From Oscillospiraceae bacterium (GTDB taxonomy: Bacteria > Bacillota > Clostridia > Oscillospirales > CAG-272), in contig SVTI01000003.1 of assembly GCA_015063855.1 (NCBI GenBank), positions 1 through 50,793 of the forward strand: a DNA stretch of 50,793 nucleotides. The letters are read 5' to 3'. A model generated the notes under the pieces. It was given only the letters and a program-made list of their open reading frames with translations. It made no database searches and was not told the DNA's origin. This document shows, one piece after another, positions 6,680 through 28,669 of this stretch (position 1 is its first letter; each line of letters begins with the position of its first letter). A program made the position numbers and the translations under genes.

Positions 6680-7027
6680 ACGCCGCCTGTATACTGAATA
6701 TCGTTCTTTCTTCGGTGCTAACAACTCACACGAAATCGAGTAATTTCCTATATATTAAAAAAGCGCCGCCGGGCGCACCGAATTTCGCCCATTTCTGAAG
6801 TGCGAACAACTCACACGAAATGAAGTAATTTCCTATATATTAAAAAAGAGGGTGCCGACCCGCAACGATGATCGGGCATGAACTACGTCAAAACCTCTAA
6901 CTTCAATGCCCGAAACGGAGCAATTTCCTATATATTAAAAAAGCGCCGCCGGGCGCACCGAATTTCGCCCATTTCTGAAGTGCGAACAACTCACACGAAA
7001 TGAAGTAATTTCCTATATATTTAAAAA
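6680..7027. repeat. Tandem array of four 85-95 bp modular repeat units (A', A, B, A) joined by AATTTCCTATATATTAAAAAAG
   Basis: Linker at 6742, 6827, 6922 and 7007 (last one imperfect). 6742-6841 is identical to 6922-7021. The middle unit matches the reverse complement of 42859-42960. Confidence 0.92.
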
Positions 7028-7056
7028 TGAAGAGACTGCTTTTGCAGTCTCTTCAT
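7022..7056 (-). terminator. Terminator of the SipW operon (possibly bidirectional)
   Basis: Perfect 13-bp stem ATGAAGAGACTGC/GCAGTCTCTTCAT, with a T run on the minus strand, 3 nt after the stop codon at 7060. Confidence 0.85.
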
Positions 7057-7059
7057 CAG

Positions 7060-7731
7060 TTATGATTGTGTTGTTCTCTTTTTACCGCATGCTGTAATAA
7101 CAACGGTAATAATTATCAACGCGCTTACAACAGCAAGACCAATATACAAAGTCAGATCAGTATTATCGTTTGTCTGAGGAGGCTTTGGGTCATCCTTTTC
7201 AACGGGAAGCTCATCTGCCTTGAATTCCCAATCTACATATCCGAGGGTATTCATATACTCGTTGTTAAGTTCCTCGGGAACATCAAGCGTAAGATCCAAA
7301 GTAATCTCACCGCCTGAATATATCGTTCCGAGATATACCCAATCTTTGAGTTGTGCTTCTTCATTCGCAGGAGCATCGAAGAGAACTGAGTCGCCGTTCT
7401 GCTTAACTGTAAGCTTCAGCTTTGAAAGAAATTCATCATCTGATTCTTCAGCCATACTTGTGTCGAGCGCTCTTACATAAAGCTTGATCTTAACATCTTT
7501 AACCTTTTCATTAACCACCTTGATACTGTCGGTAAGCTTATCACCGGGCATGACGTCCTTAAAGCTTGTAAAAAGGTCGGTGGGAGATTTATCGCTTCCC
7601 GGCTTAAAGATAAAATCCTTGGTATTAGCGTTAAACGTTACGTTACCTTGAGCAAATAAAGGAAGTGTCATGGAAACAATTATAACCGCAGTTATAAAGA
7701 GGAAGCTGAACTTTTTAATTATTATTTTCAT
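7060..7731 (-). CDS. TasA/camelysin-like domain protein with a C-terminal sortase-type sorting signal (PPQTND-TM-KKR)
   Basis: Sec signal peptide; FKDVMPGDKLTDSIKVVN resembles the camelysin/TasA 'PGD' motif; C-terminal PPQTND, hydrophobic helix and basic tail. Confidence 0.75.
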   Translation of the reverse strand: MKIIIKKFSFLFITAVIIVSMTLPLFAQGNVTFNANTKDFIFKPGSDKSPTDLFTSFKDVMPGDKLTDSIKVVNEKVKDVKIKLYVRALDTSMAEESDDEFLSKLKLTVKQNGDSVLFDAPANEEAQLKDWVYLGTIYSGGEITLDLTLDVPEELNNEYMNTLGYVDWEFKADELPVEKDDPKPPQTNDNTDLTLYIGLAVVSALIIITVVITACGKKRTTQS

Positions 7732-7743
7732 TTTTCCTCCTCC

Positions 7744-8304
7744 TTATTTGCTTATTCTACCTGTACTGCTTACTGTCACACCCCATGCTTCTTTAACAGC
7801 GCTTGTGGGGTTCGACTGTATAGCATCGGCGATGATTTCGACCTCAAGGTGATAGCCTGCAGGAGTTCTGCCACTTATGGGTTTAACTTCTCTGATGAAG
7901 TCCGGAGTAGATTTACCTGCAGCAACGGGTAAAGCGTAATAATAATATCCGTCAGAGGTAGTGAAATCCCAATTAGTGTTACTACCAAATCTAAAGGTAT
8001 AATCCTCATCCTTTACCGGCATTGAAGGATAAACATTACCGTTTGCATCCTTCCATGTTATAATATAATATGCTCTGATATAAGCAGAGGATCTTTCGGA
8101 TGTGTTCTTGATCTGAACATGCTCTTTTACTTCACCGTCAAAGGTTTCTGTAACCTCGGCTGATATATCACCCGGGAAGAAGGTGTTGACGATAGTATTG
8201 GTAAAATCAGTCTTATATGCAATGGTAACCCCGACAGACACTACAAAGAGGGCTACTATAGAAATTATAAAGAGTTTTTTATGAGCTTTAATATATTTCA
8301 TCAC
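7744..8304 (-). CDS. SipW-cognate secreted protein (TasA/CalY/BsaA-like subunit)
   Basis: GVTIA|YKTDFTNTIVNTFFPG signal/mature junction; AYIRA, DGYYYY and ADAIQS motifs shared with its paralogs. Confidence 0.8.
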   Translation of the reverse strand: MMKYIKAHKKLFIISIVALFVVSVGVTIAYKTDFTNTIVNTFFPGDISAEVTETFDGEVKEHVQIKNTSERSSAYIRAYYIITWKDANGNVYPSMPVKDEDYTFRFGSNTNWDFTTSDGYYYYALPVAAGKSTPDFIREVKPISGRTPAGYHLEVEIIADAIQSNPTSAVKEAWGVTVSSTGRISK

Positions 8305-8313
8305 AATACCTCC

Positions 8314-11139
8314 TTATACTTCCTTAAACTTATTAACAGCATAACATGTATCACTTAACCACTTTTTATTTGTAAGTGTATTTGTAAATGAGATATTAGC
8401 TGTTTCTTTAGCTTTTACAGTTACGGTTCTTGAGGTTGCGGTAACCGCAGAAGCACCGTTTACCGATACCTTGACTGAGGCTTTTGCATATCTCCAGCTC
8501 CAATCTGTACGCTCTGATACCTTATAATTACCTACAGGAAGATCATTTATAGTGACAGAGCCATTACCGTAAACAATAACGGTCATATTGATTGATTTGG
8601 TAGCAGTGCTTGTTCCGACTACATCAAAGATGAATGCTTGATCTTCATCGGGAATACCGCCATTCTTGATAACGGTTTTTTTAATTGTAAGGTTACCTAA
8701 CTGAATAGCCAAAATAATGTCAAGCTCAAGAACAGGCTTGCCTGTATTACCGGGAGTGAGATCACTTGCGGTATAAACGAATTTGAAGCTTTCAAAGAGC
8801 TCTGTGTTAAAGTTGGTAAGATTTGTTAATCTGAACTTTGAAAGATCAGTTGAAGTTACCGTACCTGAGCCGGAAATTACAACATTTCTTCCGTCATAAA
8901 GGTTCGAGTCGGTAAGACCAAGTGTAATTTTAATTCTTTGATTGCCAAAATTAAAATTGGAAGCCTTAGTTATCACCTTGGAACCTGATGCAGTATCCTT
9001 GGTAGTTGTGGAGGGCAAATAAAAATCATCATTAGGACCGCAATTGGTAAATCTGACTGTTCCGCCAAGATAGAAGACACCGTCCTGATATACTGCGCCT
9101 CCTATAGGTGCGTTGCAGTTAGAAATAATACCTCCGGACATATCAACGGTACCGCCTATATTATTATATATCGCACCGCCCTGATTCGCCGAACAGTTAT
9201 CGATGAGGCCGGAAACAAAGTAGAAAGCACCCTGTGTTACGGCAATGGCACCTCCGTTACCTTTAGCGCCTGCAGTACAGTTAACGATCTCAGCGCCGTT
9301 AAGGTAGGTAAATCCAACATTACATACAGAGCCGCCGTATTCAAGATTACCTCTGATAAGAGTAAAGTTTGAATTTAGATGTGCTGTACCATAATTTTCT
9401 ATATGTCTAAGCTTATTATTGGTATCAAAGATAAGCTCACCGTATTCTTTGGAGGTATCATTTGAGCCGAAATTAACAACCATAGCATTGGTTGGATTGG
9501 AATTCGAGCCTATGATTATACCATTTATGATCTTACGGTTCCATGTAGCGGTACAGCTTGAACCGGCTCTGGCGTCATTCTTTCCGCCGGGCTTTTCTCC
9601 CTTATAGGAAGAACGGATAGTTAGATTGTGAGGAATATTAACTGTGTATGCCTCGTTTGTGCTGTTATAAAATACCAGCTCATCATTATTTCTTGATGAA
9701 TTAACAGCATCATAAAGTGTAAAATACCATTTATTGAGCTGAATATTATATACAGATGCGATCTCAAAACGTATAACAGGATATGGGTCAGTGCTGTCTC
9801 CTGCATAATAGCTTACCGCCATTGAGTAAGAAAGATCCATTTCGTTCTGAATAATGATCTTATTTCTGTCGCTCTGAATAACAGGAGTTTTGATATCGGG
9901 CTGTCCGACTACAGGATTAGATTTATAACCTGAAGCGAGAATAATATCGCCGCTTCCCCACTTTTCAACGTCCTCAAGGAAAACAGACACGTTATTGATC
10001 TGATTGATGTTAGAACACCATTTACCGAGATAAGTACCGTATGCAAGATTTACTGAAAGCTTGTTATTATCAATATTCCATGTACCGAGTGCAGGGTTGG
10101 GCTCACGTAGACGAGTTACACCATAATCGGAGTCAACAGCCATTGCAAAATGGTGAATCTGTGTATTACCGACAAGCTCAAGAGCACCGCCATTAAGCTC
10201 AACCATGGGATAAACCTTATTCTCGGGATTCATAGTTGTAAGAAGTACACCTGTTCCCTTGTATCCTGCCTTATTAACGGGATCCGCAGCTATAGTGGTA
10301 TCCATTATGATGCAGCCGTCCGCGATCATAAGTCCGCCGTCTGCAACACGTATTGCAACAGGATTGGGATTTTCAGGACAATGAGCAGATGCATTATCTA
10401 TAAGAACATTGTTCTGCGCATAAAGATGTTTATCAAATCCGGTGTGGATATGAATCATTTCATCAGAATATCCGGGAGCACGCAATACCTGTACAGGTAC
10501 GAATGCAAAACCGGGCCAATGTGCAGAGAAATAATCCTGACCCCAGATCTCACCGTCAGTGGGGACATGATACATTTCGCAGATATAAATACGAATACCC
10601 TTTACATTATTGCCGAATACTCCAAGACCGATATTAAGAGTCGCCCATTCGAGAGCCTGCTCTATAGTGGTACAAATATAATCATGTGTCGCTTCGGGAG
10701 CACCCCAGTATGCAACGGGATTATAAACAGATGCTTCATTATCAAGCCAATATAGACCTGTTACATCATTACCTGAAGGATCCTTCTGTGTTGTATAGTA
10801 AAGAACACAGTAATCACCTGTAGCCTCAGAAATAATGGGTGAACCGAGACGGGTATCGTAAATATGATCCTCATCTACGCGTCCGCCTGCAAGATCTGTT
10901 ACAGAATCATCGGAAACGACCGAATCAATTTCGGCATCTTCATTATTCTTAGGTGTTACAGAGGACTCATTTGAAGTGTCATTTGAAGTATCATCTGTAG
11001 TGTCTGCTTCAGCAGGTAATGTTGTATCTGTAAGTAAAGCTTCTTCTTCGGTAACAAAAAGCTCCTCAGTAGCAAAAGACGGCATCAACATTACAAAGAG
11101 CATCAAGCAAACGAGGGAAAGTGCAAATAATCTTTTCAT
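8314..11139 (-). CDS. Large secreted adhesin-like protein (acidic stalk, GGA-repeat beta-helix, C-terminal pilin-like Ig domain)
   Basis: Signal peptide; D/T/S-rich N-terminus; repeated GGSV, GGAIAV, GGAIY and GGAVY motifs; C-terminal GNLTIKKTV...LPVGNYKVSE...ISFTN domain; no TM or LPXTG anchor. Confidence 0.75.
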   Translation of the reverse strand: MKRLFALSLVCLMLFVMLMPSFATEELFVTEEEALLTDTTLPAEADTTDDTSNDTSNESSVTPKNNEDAEIDSVVSDDSVTDLAGGRVDEDHIYDTRLGSPIISEATGDYCVLYYTTQKDPSGNDVTGLYWLDNEASVYNPVAYWGAPEATHDYICTTIEQALEWATLNIGLGVFGNNVKGIRIYICEMYHVPTDGEIWGQDYFSAHWPGFAFVPVQVLRAPGYSDEMIHIHTGFDKHLYAQNNVLIDNASAHCPENPNPVAIRVADGGLMIADGCIIMDTTIAADPVNKAGYKGTGVLLTTMNPENKVYPMVELNGGALELVGNTQIHHFAMAVDSDYGVTRLREPNPALGTWNIDNNKLSVNLAYGTYLGKWCSNINQINNVSVFLEDVEKWGSGDIILASGYKSNPVVGQPDIKTPVIQSDRNKIIIQNEMDLSYSMAVSYYAGDSTDPYPVIRFEIASVYNIQLNKWYFTLYDAVNSSRNNDELVFYNSTNEAYTVNIPHNLTIRSSYKGEKPGGKNDARAGSSCTATWNRKIINGIIIGSNSNPTNAMVVNFGSNDTSKEYGELIFDTNNKLRHIENYGTAHLNSNFTLIRGNLEYGGSVCNVGFTYLNGAEIVNCTAGAKGNGGAIAVTQGAFYFVSGLIDNCSANQGGAIYNNIGGTVDMSGGIISNCNAPIGGAVYQDGVFYLGGTVRFTNCGPNDDFYLPSTTTKDTASGSKVITKASNFNFGNQRIKITLGLTDSNLYDGRNVVISGSGTVTSTDLSKFRLTNLTNFNTELFESFKFVYTASDLTPGNTGKPVLELDIILAIQLGNLTIKKTVIKNGGIPDEDQAFIFDVVGTSTATKSINMTVIVYGNGSVTINDLPVGNYKVSERTDWSWRYAKASVKVSVNGASAVTATSRTVTVKAKETANISFTNTLTNKKWLSDTCYAVNKFKEV

Positions 11140-11153
11140 CTTCTCTTCCCTCC

Positions 11154-11735
11154 TTATTCAGCAGTAGGCCAGCCTTCGGCAGTCAATACGTCTTTTCCGT
11201 TATTGTCAGCCTGAACGCCTTCTGCGATAACGTCTATATCGATAGTACAATTCTTACAGGTAGTAAGCTCTTCTGAAATTATAACTTCGTCAATGATAGC
11301 ATCGGTAGAGTCACCTGTTTTTACAATATCCTTATAATAGAACCAACCGTCATCCTCTTCCTTGGTAAGCCAAGACGAAGAAGTTGCAGACTGTACGTAA
11401 ATATGCTCTTCGGGATAATCGACCTCATTACCCTCGCTATCCTTAACGGTTATAACATACTTACAGCGGATATAAGCATCAGCATCGTTATTCTGTACAG
11501 TTACAATTTTACTGATAGGGTCCTTTGAAGGTAATACCTTAATTTCATCCTCAGGATAATCAACAAGCTCTCCTTCGTCGTTAATCATTTTTTCAACGAT
11601 CTCGATATCGAAGCCGCCTGTTGTGATTACATTACGCGCAATTTTCTGTGCGGTAAAGTATGCGGCTGTACCTGTTGCGGCAATCGCAACAAGCAATACA
11701 GCCAATGCGAATACAAGGATCTTTCTTTTCCTCAC
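11154..11735 (-). CDS. SipW-cognate secreted protein (TasA/CalY-like subunit)
   Basis: GTG start; ATGTAA|YFTAQKIARNVITTG junction; AYIRC, DGWFYY and AEGVQA motifs. Confidence 0.85.
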   Translation of the reverse strand: MRKRKILVFALAVLLVAIAATGTAAYFTAQKIARNVITTGGFDIEIVEKMINDEGELVDYPEDEIKVLPSKDPISKIVTVQNNDADAYIRCKYVITVKDSEGNEVDYPEEHIYVQSATSSSWLTKEEDDGWFYYKDIVKTGDSTDAIIDEVIISEELTTCKNCTIDIDVIAEGVQADNNGKDVLTAEGWPTAE

Positions 11736-11771
11736 AATATCACATCTCCAATCTCAAGTTTTTTCTATCCG

Positions 11772-11953
11772 GGTCTCCCCCTTGGGAGACAATATCCAAA
11801 TGCAGGACATACAGGAATATCTCAATTACATATCAACCAAGCTTGACCTCATGGTGATAAGGATAACTACAAATAATCGGGATATCCTTGTATGCCCTGC
11901 ATCTGTATTTCAAGATGCAGGGTATAAGGAAGTCGGATTAACCGACGGATATT
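11772..11953 (-). promoter_or_regulatory. Structured intergenic RNA element with mutually exclusive stems
   Basis: 29-bp imperfect inverted repeat 11800-11828 / 11874-11902. A competing arm at 11913-11930 pairs with 11885-11904. Small flanking hairpins GTCTCCC/GGGAGAC and GTCGG/CCGAC. Confidence 0.6.
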
Positions 11954-11968
11954 CAAATTAAATACAAA

Positions 11969-12487
11969 TTAAGCGAGTTCAACAAGCATTGCTTCCCAAG
12001 CTTCAGCTGCAGTGGTAGCTGCATCGTCCTGAATAGCATAAGCTGTGAAGGAAAGAGTAGCCTGAGCTGCTGCGGAAACGTCAGAAACGTCAGAGTCAAC
12101 AGTTACCTGATTGTCCTGAAGTACAGGGTAAGCGGTCTCAGCTGCGTTTTCAATGTAGTAAACGCCTTCGTAACCGGGAACTGCGGTCCAGGTCTTCTCA
12201 ATGCTGTACTTAACGAATTCGGGAAGAGTGCTCTCTACCTTAACGAATACCCAGCATCCGCCGCCGTTGGACTGAACGGTAACAACAGGATCCTTAGCGA
12301 TAGTAGCGCCGGGCTCTACTACGTACTTATCAGTGGTCTCTGTAAGAGTGATTGCGATGCCTTCGCCAACTACGAATACGTTGTCGATGGTCTGAGTCTT
12401 AGCGTTAAGCCAAGCATAGGTGCCGCCGATAGCAGCTCCGAAAAGTAATACAACTGCGAGTACAAGTACTAATGTTCTCTTTTTCAT
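11969..12487 (-). CDS. SipW-cognate secreted protein (probable major fibre subunit)
   Basis: IGGTYA|WLNAKTQTIDNVFVVG junction; PGATIAKDPVVTV and TAYAIQ...AEAW motifs. Confidence 0.88.
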   Translation of the reverse strand: MKKRTLVLVLAVVLLFGAAIGGTYAWLNAKTQTIDNVFVVGEGIAITLTETTDKYVVEPGATIAKDPVVTVQSNGGGCWVFVKVESTLPEFVKYSIEKTWTAVPGYEGVYYIENAAETAYPVLQDNQVTVDSDVSDVSAAAQATLSFTAYAIQDDAATTAAEAWEAMLVELA

Positions 12488-12569
12488 TGTTCTTTCTCCT
12501 TAAATTTAATTAACAGGTATTCCTGTCAGAATTTTAAATAATTAAGCAATATAAACTTGACCTTTTATA

Positions 12570-13193
12570 TTACTTAGTGAATGCTGCCCATGCAGCGTCT
12601 GCATCTGCAAAACCAAATGCCTGGATCGCGTGACCCTCAACGTTGATCTGCATGTTGTCGAGATTCTTGAGCTCATTGCCCCAGATTTCGCCATCGAACT
12701 GAACATCAGTAAAGATAGGCTCGAGAACTACTGCAGCGTCGGGAGCAGCAACTGTAGAAGCATAACGATATTCATATACAACAGAAGTCATATCGTCAGC
12801 AACAGTCTTTGCGTTGAGTATCCACTTTTCATTATCCACACCCTTGAAGATGCCATCGAGCTTGTCGCCGAGATAGGTATCGTCAAGTGCATTTTCGAAC
12901 TTTACGGTAACCATCATACGAACATAGGACTCAAGGCTTCCCTCTTCAACTGTAACGGTAGGAGCCTTAGGATAAACTTCACCGGGAACGATGTCCTCAT
13001 AGGTCTGTCCGTAGGAACCGTCATCGTTTTCTTCTGCGCCTTCTTCGTCGATGGAGATATCAACGTTACCTACTGTAAATACGTTCTTTACTTCATCGCT
13101 GTCTGTAAAGTATGCTACTGTAAGTCCTACGCTGAGAGAAACGAGTAAAAGTGCGGATGCAGCAAGTAATAATACTTTCTTTCCTTTCTTCAT
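12570..13193 (-). CDS. SipW-cognate TasA-family protein (probable major fibre subunit)
   Basis: VGLTVA|YFTDSDEVKNVFTVGNVDI is a canonical SipW-class signal; IVPGEVYPKAPTVTV and GHAIQA...AAWAAF motifs. Confidence 0.9.
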   Translation of the reverse strand: MKKGKKVLLLAASALLLVSLSVGLTVAYFTDSDEVKNVFTVGNVDISIDEEGAEENDDGSYGQTYEDIVPGEVYPKAPTVTVEEGSLESYVRMMVTVKFENALDDTYLGDKLDGIFKGVDNEKWILNAKTVADDMTSVVYEYRYASTVAAPDAAVVLEPIFTDVQFDGEIWGNELKNLDNMQINVEGHAIQAFGFADADAAWAAFTK

Positions 13194-13247
13194 TTGATTA
13201 TAACCTCCTTCTTATAAATTTTAATTTAATTAAGCAGCCTCACGGCG

Positions 13248-13772
13248 TTACTTACTTTTTTTATTCTTTTTGTCATCGAATAATATATCGGGCAAAAAGA
13301 CTATAAACAGAACCACTGCACCGATGGCTATTGAAATATACAATCCGGGCGGATTCTGAATGAAATGAGACAAATAACCCAAAAGCGGAATTGAGAATAA
13401 GGGTTTTCCGATTATATTATTCTCATGAACCGGCTCACCGTCAGGTAATTTGTTTGCATCGCCCTGTGTTTCAAAGGCAAGCTTATCGGGGTCATTCTCA
13501 TCTGTTGTTATATTAATAATTCTGTGAGTTGCGACAGTTTCATCGGGAAGAACAAAGGTGATCGGATCTCCGACCTTAAGATCCTTTATGTCAGTTGATT
13601 TAACATATATAAGTGAACCGACATGGTATGTAGGCTCCATCGAGCCGGAAAGCACCGCGTATGGCTTGACACCGAACAGCCTAACTCCGGCTAATGCAAT
13701 CGCAAGCAACACTATTATAATTACTAAAATATTAGCGATAGTATTCCATATTTTCTTAATTTTGGTTGTCAT
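13248..13772 (-). CDS. sipW: Signal peptidase I, archaeal/ER-like SipW type
   Basis: VLSGSMEP catalytic Ser, ATHRI His, TQGDAN...D motif, N- and C-terminal TM helices, IPLLGY. Confidence 0.93.
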   Translation of the reverse strand: MTTKIKKIWNTIANILVIIIVLLAIALAGVRLFGVKPYAVLSGSMEPTYHVGSLIYVKSTDIKDLKVGDPITFVLPDETVATHRIINITTDENDPDKLAFETQGDANKLPDGEPVHENNIIGKPLFSIPLLGYLSHFIQNPPGLYISIAIGAVVLFIVFLPDILFDDKKNKKSK

Positions 13773-13834: not shown

Positions 13835-13863
13835 ATTATAGCACAATATTTTTAATATTGCAA
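13835..13863 (-). promoter_or_regulatory. sigmaA-type promoter of the sipW operon
   Basis: Minus strand TTGCAA-17 nt-TATAAT with a TG extension. Confidence 0.7.
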
Positions 13864-28397: not shown

Positions 28398-28669
28398 GGC
28401 CATACCGGCCGGGGAGCTAGCGGTGCCCTGCACCTGCAATCCGCTATAGCAGGGGTGGTTTCCCTTTTTGAGGGCTGGAGATGTTTGGTTAGCCCCGTAT
28501 CTTGGATGTTGAGGAATGGGTCTCGTGCAATCACTCGCTGTGAACCATGTCAGGCGGGGAACCGAGCAGCATTAAGCGGTCTGAAGTGATGTGCCGCGAG
28601 GTCGCCTGTTCTGAGTTCAAGTTACGGCAAGCACTTATGGCTTCATGTTCGATTTGAGGGTGTATGGTC
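28398..28669 (+). ncRNA. ffs: Large bacterial SRP RNA (scRNA, with Alu domain)
   Basis: Alu-like 5' GGGGAGCTAGCGGTGCCCTGCACCTGCAATCCGCTATAGCAGGG; domain IV GAACCATGTCAGGCGGGGAACCGAGCAGCATTAAG; 5'/3' pairing GGCCATAC/GTATGGTC; located upstream of dnaX as in Bacillus. Confidence 0.93.

Follow-up and report, generated by a model that had tools for sequence, protein, structure and literature searches.

A seven-gene cassette on the minus strand of a 50,793-nucleotide stretch of Oscillospiraceae bacterium DNA (GenBank assembly GCA_015063855.1, contig SVTI01000003.1, positions 1 to 50,793, hereafter the window) probably directs the assembly of a surface fibre, a TasA/BsaA-superfamily heteropolymer that is attached to the cell wall through one sortase substrate, a reading drawn entirely from computation. 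The cassette consists of seven same-strand open reading frames (ORFs) arranged head to tail from 13772 to 7060, in the order sipW, P2, P3, P4, P5, P6 and P7. An earlier note on this DNA had described these co-oriented genes as a candidate pilus with a SipW-processed shaft, a tip adhesin and a sortase-anchored base, and the gene layout it gave was recovered in full. The features are as follows.

13248 to 13772, minus strand: sipW, 174 residues, signal peptidase I of the archaeal/endoplasmic reticulum type (TIGR02228, Peptidase_S26)
12570 to 13193, minus strand: P2, 207 residues, SipW-type pilin-like subunit, candidate major shaft subunit
11969 to 12487, minus strand: P3, 172 residues, SipW-type pilin-like subunit, candidate shaft or minor subunit
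11154 to 11735, minus strand: P4, 193 residues, BsaA-like subunit, proposed base adaptor
8314 to 11139, minus strand: P5, 941 residues, secreted, without an anchor, proposed tip adhesin
8314 to 8364, minus strand: C-terminal tail of P5, the last 16 residues KWLSDTCYAVNKFKEV and the stop codon, proposed C-terminal donor strand
7744 to 8304, minus strand: P6, 186 residues, pilin-like subunit, proposed tip adaptor
7060 to 7731, minus strand: P7, 223 residues, predicted TasA-like jelly-roll with a sorting signal, proposed acceptor-only base
7063 to 7182, minus strand: sorting signal of P7, residues 184 to 223, with PPQTN, a hydrophobic span and a KKR tail
13835 to 13863, minus strand: promoter-like site 5' of sipW, TTGCAA-17 nucleotides-TATAAT with a TG extension, consensus match 10/12
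7023 to 7055, minus strand: intrinsic-terminator-like hairpin with a 12-bp stem, an AAAA loop and a T-run, directly 3' of the P7 stop

P7, a TasA-like protein with a sorting signal

Homology and fold: The profile of the P7 family aligns with that of the P4 family at 96.7% probability in hhalign (E 4.1e-10, 146 columns), and the two TasA chains head the three PDB sequence matches of the P7 profile, both weakly (E about 0.2). Among the pilin-like cassette proteins, fold comparison was done on P7 alone, using an AlphaFold2 (AF2) monomer model with a predicted local distance difference test (pLDDT) value of 69.6. Foldseek matched this model to TasA (5of1_A, E 1.9e-4) and to the Pyrobaculum bundling pilin (7ueg, E 8.8e-4), and the VIA-align match to TasA 5of2 (Z 7.4, root-mean-square deviation 3.5) covers 132 residues, the longest alignment among those listed. 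We read the homology of P7 to TasA-type subunits as established through the P4 family profile, with a fold match that is consistent and non-unique; the anchored protein had been called TasA-like in the earlier note, and that description holds. The family is large, with 1454 proteins at E up to 0.001 in the collection searched, none of which has a Pfam domain.

Sorting signal: P7 has an ordinary signal peptide at its N-terminus and ends in PPQTN, a hydrophobic stretch and KKR. In a 36-member alignment of the family, the C-terminus reads DPKPPQTGD, with xPxTG followed by D in 34 of the 36; TN in place of TG occurs in the P7 of the window and in one other member. Conservation was counted over 80 loci, the best 80 of the 165 stretches that encode a P7 relative in a species-level genome collection, and these carry PPQTG in 29 cases and PPKTG in 13, while the pattern matched nothing in 7. 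The family member P0027, which has PPQTG, scores 23 bits against srtB_target (cut-off 18.15) and 21.8 against LPXTG_anchor (cut-off 15.9), and the curated models for sortase-B and LPXTG signals match 16 and 24 of the 36 aligned members, respectively, when E values up to 0.1 are allowed. As judged from these models, the P7 family fits a clostridial class-B sorting signal. Since P7 is the only cassette protein with such a signal, polymerisation would not need sortase, as had been proposed earlier.

Sortases: Domain-model scans found no sortase domain in the seven cassette proteins. The genome has three SrtB-like genes, of which two (contigs C22 and C96) exceed the TIGR03064 cut-off and one (C68) does not; the first two are stand-alone genes, and the third adjoins the gene of an SPTTG protein. 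Among the 68 loci with at least 2.5 kb of downstream sequence, 6 have an SrtB-like gene within 4 kb downstream of P7, and such a gene lies 1.0–2.4 kb after P7 in loci L036, L040, L042, L046, L052 and L078. In locus L031 the P7 homologue (11607–12932, 441 residues) has twice the normal length, as it does in L032 (433 residues), and the ORF next to it in L031, from 12919, resembles a sortase N-terminus. A link of the P7 family to EF0750_LPXTG was considered, given that 28 of the 36 members match that model at E up to 0.1, and was rejected, as the matches reach 20–24 bits against a cut-off of 47 and are limited to the signal peptide or the sorting signal.

Predicted insertion of the P4 strand into P7

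P4–P7 complex: We modelled a four-chain complex composed of the P7 ectodomain (residues 28–184, the scored partner), mature P4 (26–193), mature P6 (30–186) and the C-terminal domain of P5 with its tail, every chain being supplied with its own alignment. The P4–P7 scores were 0.64, 0.54 and 0.63 (median 0.63), against 0.04 for the best of 3 controls, a result classed as support for binding; the score mark is reached in 58 of 80 solved complexes versus 2 of 110 mismatched pairs. The runs have at least 97% of their contacts in common, and the partner pLDDT is at least 82. The predicted interface sets P4 residues 26–42, 85, 175 and 177–178 against P7 residues 31–64 and 159–175, and the confident part on P4, residues 26–42, coincides exactly with the N-terminal strand that SipW would free, N35 included. 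When P4 was swapped out, the score was 0.04 and the pLDDT of P7 was 59, despite the presence of P6 and the P5 C-terminus; overall, the pLDDT of P7 rises from 59–70 without the P4 strand to 82–83 with it. P7 is predicted to accept the mature N-terminal strand of P4, which agrees with the earlier proposal that the base would act as an acceptor. This result is also in agreement with synteny, since P4 is the companion gene of P7 in both cassette types described below. The output scored P4–P7 only, and the placement of P6 and of the P5 tail lies outside it.

SipW and the four pilin-like proteins

SipW and its candidate substrates: The sipW product matches TIGR02228 with 118.1 bits (cut-off 51.85) and falls under the cut-off of the Bacillus SipW equivalog (102.8 versus 190 bits). 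It has two membrane spans and carries SGSMEP from residue 42, THRI from residue 82 and GDAN from residue 104. The earlier note had ascribed SipW-class signals to all four small proteins; P2 and P4 score above the cut-off of 19 in TIGR04088, the SipW-type signal model (31.0 and 21.0 bits), whereas P3, with 18.8 bits, lies 0.2 under the cut-off and P6 has no match to this model, though its A↓Y..N.F pattern is present (the arrow marks the cleavage site). The N-terminal pattern described for the mature proteins, (Y/W)xx(D/A)...N(V/T)(F/I)xxG, occurs in all four, as YFTD..NVFTVG, WLNA..NVFVVG, YFTA..NVITTG and YKTD..NTFFPG, with the donor strand of P2 beginning after an A↓YFTD site.

Family relationships: P2, P3, P4 and P6 resemble one another (BLASTP E 6e-11 to 3e-4). 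Against the BsaA-family model TIGR04090, P4 matches with E 8e-12 and 45.4 bits, under the cut-off of 60, and P6 with E 1.8e-5, likewise under the cut-off. A PDB sequence search with P2 alone gave no match; the P4 family profile has no match in the PDB and hence no TasA chain, and the P6 family profile has chance-level matches only, with no TasA chain among them. The adjacency of P2 to sipW and the number of P2/P3 paralogues, which varies among loci, suggest P2 as the candidate major shaft subunit. Synteny and the complex model together point to non-equivalent roles for the four small proteins, with P4 serving as adaptor at the base and P6 at the tip, and the view that all four are equivalent shaft subunits is not upheld.

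Conserved residues: Each pilin family has one Asn in the donor strand, one Glu 13–14 residues on and one Lys further along, each conserved in at least 95% of members. The counts by family alignment are as follows.

P2 family: N37 in 48/48, E50 in 47/48, K76 in 48/48
P3 family: N36 in 44/44, E50 in 44/44, K65 in 44/44
P4 family: N35 in 55/56, E48 in 55/56, K76 in 55/56
P6 family: N40 in 58/59, E53 in 57/59, K60 in 56/59

In the P6 alignment, F42 is invariant together with N40. In BsaA of Clostridium perfringens the donor strand is locked by an isopeptide between N35 and K74, with E56 as the catalytic residue, according to the available part of PMC11580942. The Asn, Glu and Lys of the cassette pilins parallel BsaA N35, E56 and K74, the correspondence being one of pattern and not of alignment to BsaA.

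P5, its C-terminal tail and its coupling to P6

Domains of P5: P5 carries an ordinary signal peptide and, at its C-terminus, a DUF5979 pilin-like Ig domain (residues 817–923, E 4.7e-7 in Pfam). It has no sorting signal, and a genome-wide regular-expression search matched only P7 on contig C16. The full-length AF2 model has a mean pLDDT of 55.8 and is confident at 100–190, 580–710 and 810–925, and the middle part is rich in beta strands; the closest folds, matched by way of the Ig domain at the C-terminus, are those of Gram-positive pilins and pilus adhesins. The earlier note had described a 941-residue beta-helix protein without an anchor. Length and lack of an anchor stand, and the beta-helix stands in part: residues at about 580–710 form regular strands with pLDDT 80–90, but the beta-helix matches in Foldseek are weak (prob 0.63 and 0.38, to tailspike-like glycan enzymes) and a POMP repeat scores E 0.39. 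After the signal peptide, residues 11–98 are predicted to be disordered (pLDDT 21–41), strongly acidic and rich in Thr, Asp and Glu, which recalls by analogy the 'acidic whip' of the Elr tip adhesin discussed below.

The P5 tail: Past the end of the Pfam domain at residue 923, P5 continues into the tail, and residues 926–941 have pLDDT below 50 in the monomer model. P5 has no other conserved extension at either terminus; the tail is near-identical across nine orthologues and recurs in distant loci as KWLDGDSYxVNIF-like sequences. The motif W-x(8-10)-N-x-hydrophobic occurs within the last 32 residues of 46 of the 52 proteins of at least 450 residues encoded directly upstream of P6; the tail alignment was picked by this W/N motif, so its invariant W and N are so by construction. 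Tails and true donor strands have in common an aromatic start, an Asn nine residues on and a hydrophobic residue at +2, and the likeness between them is partial and weak. The homologue P0131 has a sorting signal in place of the tail. An N-terminal donor on P5 was also considered and set aside, as the orthologues have no conserved Asn motif at the mature N-terminus.

Coupling to P6: P7 is preceded by P6 in 60 of the 80 loci, and 52 of the 57 visible ORFs upstream of P6 encode at least 450 residues. With a profile of the P5 C-terminus searched against 401 genomes of the order, the P6 gene lies within 82 nucleotides of the P5-type stop in 27 of the 30 best loci; in the 3 that lack P6 after P5, the tails are degenerate. 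Fused P5–P6 proteins were sought as longer proteins with a P6 domain, and none was found among 1260 candidates, which is weak evidence. Eight other proteins in the P5 slot have VWA domains in 3 (loci L070, L072 and L104), Listeria-Bacteroides repeats in 4 and BNR in 1, and the VWA protein of L072 also carries a GBS104-like tip-pilin Ig domain. Together, these proteins show the pattern of a fixed module for attachment that carries differing payloads. The designation of the large protein as an adhesin is borne out to the extent that its slot holds typical tip-adhesin domains in other genomes.

Conservation and cassette types

Distribution: A P7 relative is present in 14 of the 61 genomes searched, the genome of the window included, and in 6 of the 9 other genomes of the genus. 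Nearly all of the 80 loci are labelled as gut, rumen or faecal Clostridia, and one comes from a cultured strain, Solibaculum intestinale. The gene order is identical in 7 of 12 loci taken from relatives. The gene directly before P7 is P6 in 60 loci and P4 in 16, and nothing is visible there in the remaining 4. A synteny survey for co-occurring components had been proposed. Among the P6-type loci, 60 in all, 35 show a sipW gene, and 31 of these 35 hold P2 or P3, P4, P5, P6 and P7 by BLAST labels. On the evidence of gene order, the arrangement of the cassette is more than chance.

Second cassette type: The 16 loci without P5 and P6 (L027, L029, L074, L077, L084, L102 and L108–L112 among them) form a second type, in which large proteins precede P4–P7. 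Those of L027 and L029 have SipW-type signals and N-terminal donor-like strands, and in this type the payload seems to be fused to the pilin module instead of docking by a tail.

Irregular copies: In one relative (L023/L062), two ORFs, of 426 and 508 residues, take the place of a single P5 gene, and the P7 matches of genomes G049 and G003 contain an in-frame TAG. Both may be the result of decay or of assembly errors.

A proposed model of the fibre

Assembly: We propose that the seven products act together in the making of a single polar fibre. SipW would process P2, P3, P4 and P6 by cutting off their signal peptides behind the Ala of A↓(Y/W)(F/L), which would free their N-terminal strands, and each freed strand would enter the incomplete jelly-roll of the next subunit by donor-strand complementation, where the Asn of the donor strand and the Glu and Lys of the acceptor may form an isopeptide bond as in BsaA. 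From tip to wall the order would be P5, P6, (P2/P3)n, P4 and P7, in which P5 would be the modular adhesin, P6 its dedicated adaptor, P2 and P3 the repeating shaft, and P4 the base adaptor. P7 would take the strand of P4, give none in return, and be linked to peptidoglycan by a class-B sortase whose gene lies in another part of the genome. With P7 as the acceptor at the wall end, a distal groove would be left open that only a donated strand can close, and the conserved C-terminal tail of P5 would fill this groove in the most distal pilin. We infer the docking of the tail into P6 as a strand donor from the conservation of the tail, the polarity of the fibre and the coupling of P5 to P6. Growth would proceed tip-first at the membrane, where an uncleaved signal peptide would retain the newest subunit until SipW frees its strand. 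The P4–P7 joint comes from the complex model; fibre formation, the order beyond that joint, tail docking, the isopeptides and tip-first growth triggered by SipW are what we infer from the whole.

A bolder form of this model, which we put forward tentatively and regard as rather doubtful, is a widespread plug-and-play pilus of gut Clostridia in which SipW cleavage triggers tip-first polymerisation at the membrane and every joint, that to the tip among them, is locked by an Asn-Lys isopeptide. Adhesins with VWA domains, Listeria-Bacteroides repeats or a beta-helix would be interchangeable and would each dock into a dedicated adaptor pilin by a short C-terminal strand. If it were correct, the unexplained VWA protein BsaC would be the tip of BsaA fibres.

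Points that weigh against the model: A number of results count against a wall-attached fibre with P5 at its tip. First, anchoring: the earlier note had assigned P7 a sorting signal, and although the family carries one, the P7 of the window, with PPQTN and not PPQTG, scores 13.3 bits against srtB_target (cut-off 18.15), so that its own sorting is uncertain. NPQTN is not cleaved by the C. difficile SrtB, according to the available part of PMC4155245, and the window has no sortase gene. Second, the base: P7 lacks a conserved Lys at the position aligned to the acceptor Lys, and the P4–P7 joint may therefore be non-covalent. The complex score comes from a four-chain job with custom alignments, unlike the calibration set, and since solved TasA-type fibres exist, its pass may reflect likeness instead of real binding. 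In VIA-align the C-terminal domain of the C. perfringens enterotoxin reaches Z 7.8, which ties the TasA match with unrelated beta-sandwiches; Z values below 8 are common among unrelated models, and the P7 monomer model is only moderate. Third, the tip: the P5 model is poor overall, and the term adhesin is taken from domain types alone. An N-terminal-donor profile ranks the tail of the window's P5 223rd among 4577 C-termini of genome ORFs, the median percentile of the 52 tails against this null distribution is 7 to 11 (10 of them reach the top 1%), and the hydrophobic register N-terminal of the Asn is unlike that of true donors. Finally, only DNA contigs, from faeces and gut metagenomes, are listed for this stretch, and no RNA dataset.

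Alternative explanations

A matrix fibre with P5 off the fibre: The cassette could encode a biofilm matrix fibre of the TasA/BsaA type and not a finite pilus with a tip. P2 and P3 would polymerise, P7 with P4 would act only as a wall-bound nucleator or tether in the manner of TapA, and P5 would be secreted alongside the fibre as a separate matrix protein or enzyme, perhaps a glycan-active beta-helix protein. Matrix fibres are what TasA and BsaA, the relatives studied best, form; BsaC, which has no assigned role, is free in supernatants; the P5 tail matches donor strands only weakly, and the weak beta-helix matches of P5 are to tailspike-like glycan enzymes. An off-fibre P5 sits poorly with the P6 gene that directly follows the P5-type one in 27 of the 30 loci located independently, with a tail kept past the last domain in 46 of 52 proteins, and with the VWA and tip-pilin Ig domains of the same-slot proteins; in addition, the predicted polarity leaves a distal open groove in need of a strand. 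We regard this explanation as unlikely, though it is the strongest of the alternatives.

Two separate products: The seven genes could instead specify a short wall-anchored stalk, P5–P6–P4–P7, which shows an adhesin near the wall, and a separate P2/P3 fibre. The 233-nucleotide gap that divides sipW–P2–P3 from P4–P5–P6–P7 would suit such a split, as would the P4–P7 pairs without P5 and P6 in 16 of the 80 loci and the differing number of P2/P3 paralogues. Yet no promoter-like site is listed in the gap, the sole SipW gene lies in the first half while P4 and P6, in the second, have SipW-type N-termini, the two halves stand together in 31 of 35 loci with a visible sipW, and the Asn/Glu/Lys set is common to all four pilin families. 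Two products are accordingly quite improbable, more so than the matrix fibre without P5.

An independent P7: That P7 is a sortase-anchored surface protein in its own right, which has a fold in common with its neighbours and does not bind them, is hardly credible: pairs like solved complexes can pass complex prediction through that resemblance and the acceptor-Lys position is not conserved in P7, but the signal is lost when P4 is swapped with two related chains still present, the pLDDT of P7 rises with the P4 strand, and P4 or P6 precedes P7 in 76 of the 80 loci, the remaining 4 having no visible upstream gene.

Comparison with known systems

TasA of Bacillus: In TasA fibres, subunits join through donor-strand exchange and TapA helps by giving a strand, as described in the available parts of PMC9674648 and PMC10151520. 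As far as these parts go, the tapA-sipW-tasA system of Bacillus subtilis resembles the cassette in its dedicated SipW and, going by what is predicted for the cassette proteins, in its jelly-roll subunits with N-terminal donor strands and a minor non-shaft protein that supplies a strand. Unlike it, the cassette of the window has four pilin families and a sortase signal on a TasA-like subunit, and its large variable protein would donate a strand from the C-terminus. The Asn/Glu/Lys set is reported to be absent from TasA in the part of PMC11580942 that was available.

BsaA of C. perfringens: The sipW-bsaA-bsaB-bsaC system is similar in combining SipW with subunits of the BsaA family (P4 matches TIGR04090), in the donor-strand Asn and acceptor Glu and Lys, with residue equivalence by pattern only, and in a large VWA protein within the operon, comparable to the P5 slot of L070, L072 and L104. 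PMC11580942 speculates that the BsaA fibre is anchored by SrtB and an LPXTG-bearing homologue of BsaB; BsaC is described there as a VWA protein with no assigned role that is free in supernatants, and the word 'tip' is absent from the text. The cassette of the window differs in having a separate anchored P7 family and dedicated adaptors, P4 and P6.

AbpX and Tafi loci: In the available part of 10.64898/2026.01.04.697558, AbpX-family loci of archaea have a signal peptidase, major and minor subunits and predicted tip proteins, and bacterial AbpX loci have LPXTG or SLH anchor proteins that form donor-strand oligomers with the fibril subunit in AlphaFold3. In archaeal Tafi loci, one protein is proposed as the tip, and the membrane anchor is of the jelly-roll kind (PMC12337348). 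These loci and the cassette belong to different sequence subfamilies, and the AbpX-linked peptidase has ten membrane spans in the text available, whereas the SipW of the window has two. The available AbpX and Tafi texts, with supplements outside the search, mention neither a C-terminal tip tail nor adaptors of the P4/P6 type.

Elr WxL pilus: In Enterococcus faecalis, the Elr WxL pilus is assembled by donor-strand exchange and retained by sortase, as has been shown experimentally (10.64898/2026.10.17.759780). Like the proposed fibre, it combines a modular adhesin at the tip with a small base subunit that is sorted; unlike it, it is built from the unrelated WxL fold and requires a DUF916/DUF3324 membrane chaperone, and WxL-pilin and DUF916/DUF3324 domains are absent from the seven cassette proteins in Pfam at E up to 1. 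The polarity is also reversed, since the Elr tip is acceptor-only and its base donor-only, whereas the base of the cassette is predicted to be an acceptor. Elr is nearly confined to Bacilli, with 2 of 343 Clostridia genera positive in the part of 10.64898/2026.10.17.759780 that was available.

Sortase-assembled and chaperone–usher pili: The SpaA-type pili whose tips are VWA pilins of the GBS104 kind are alike in that the P5 C-terminal domain matches pilin and adhesin Ig domains, that the L072 protein joins VWA to a GBS104-like Ig domain, and that wall anchoring by sortase is predicted for the cassette too. They differ in that the cassette has a sorting signal on P7 only and no pilin-specific sortase, and in that its subunits would join by strand insertion and not by sortase. 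Two ordinary SpaA-type sortase pilus clusters occur elsewhere in the same genome (contigs C53 and C63), as do a 1397-residue APQTG-anchored protein with DUF5979-like repeats (C110) and one further protein with a SipW-type signal (C98, 819–1595). Type 1 pili (FimH-FimG-FimF-FimA), as far as the sources available describe them, have a tip adhesin, single-copy adaptors, a rod, a terminator and donor-strand links, as in the model; they are Gram-negative, depend on a periplasmic chaperone and an usher, have no homology to the cassette, and have neither a signal-peptidase trigger nor a sortase.

Precedence: The earlier note had left open whether such an architecture is already described. Since the BsaB-LPXTG, AbpX, Tafi and Elr architectures have been predicted or shown, the principle is already in print. 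Within the literature searched, with the papers' supplements outside the search, we found no account of this seven-gene cassette or of the P7 family as a sorted base, and neither the P4/P6 adaptor families nor a C-terminal tail on modular tips.

Implications

If the model holds, many uncultured gut and rumen Clostridia would gain a defined adhesive organelle, and its tip proteins would become named candidates for host or substrate binding. TasA-type fibres would then not be merely matrix scaffolds, but could form the core of a pilus with tip, adaptors, shaft and covalent anchor, a design arrived at separately from the WxL and the sortase routes. The P4–P7 and P5–P6 pairs offer short, testable interfaces, and the C-terminal tail provides a sequence tag for seeking further tip proteins. 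If the model is wrong, the cassette remains a well-conserved accessory set of a BsaA-like matrix fibre.

Locus layout and flanks

Transcription signals: A promoter and a terminator had been placed at the ends of the cassette, and both were found, as sequence matches only: the TTGCAA-17-TATAAT site before sipW and the 12-bp hairpin with its T-run after P7. The hairpin at 7023–7055 was read by eye from the sequence, and the motif scan gave two GC hairpins further downstream instead. From sipW to P7, the intergenic gaps measure 54, 82, 233, 14, 9 and 12 nucleotides. A promoter scan found no promoter-like site in the 233-nucleotide gap between P3 and P4 (11736–11968, minus strand), which contains a 9-bp hairpin, CCCTGCATC..GATGCAGGG, without a T-run; this gap with its hairpin could set the ratio of shaft to minor subunits.

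Flanking genes: The cassette is flanked by obg and ligA on one side and by spoIIR on the other. A relative of the same genus has the cassette with an identical obg and ligA flank, and in another relative the cassette adjoins a large gene that resembles an RNA polymerase subunit, by reading of the translation only. Since its flanks differ between relatives, the cassette moves as a unit.

Repeats and RNA: Between spoIIR and the P7 terminator lies a direct repeat of 117 nucleotides, at 6731–6847 and 6911–7027 of the window, whose copies are 97% identical and spaced by 180 nucleotides. Each copy contains a GC-rich hairpin with a T-run (6956–6943 and 6776–6763, minus strand), and the motif AATATATAGGAAATT occurs four times in this repeat region. 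The cassette region has no match to an RNA family in Rfam; the sole Rfam match in the window is the large RNA of the bacterial signal recognition particle, at 28400–28667 on the plus strand, with 154.8 bits.

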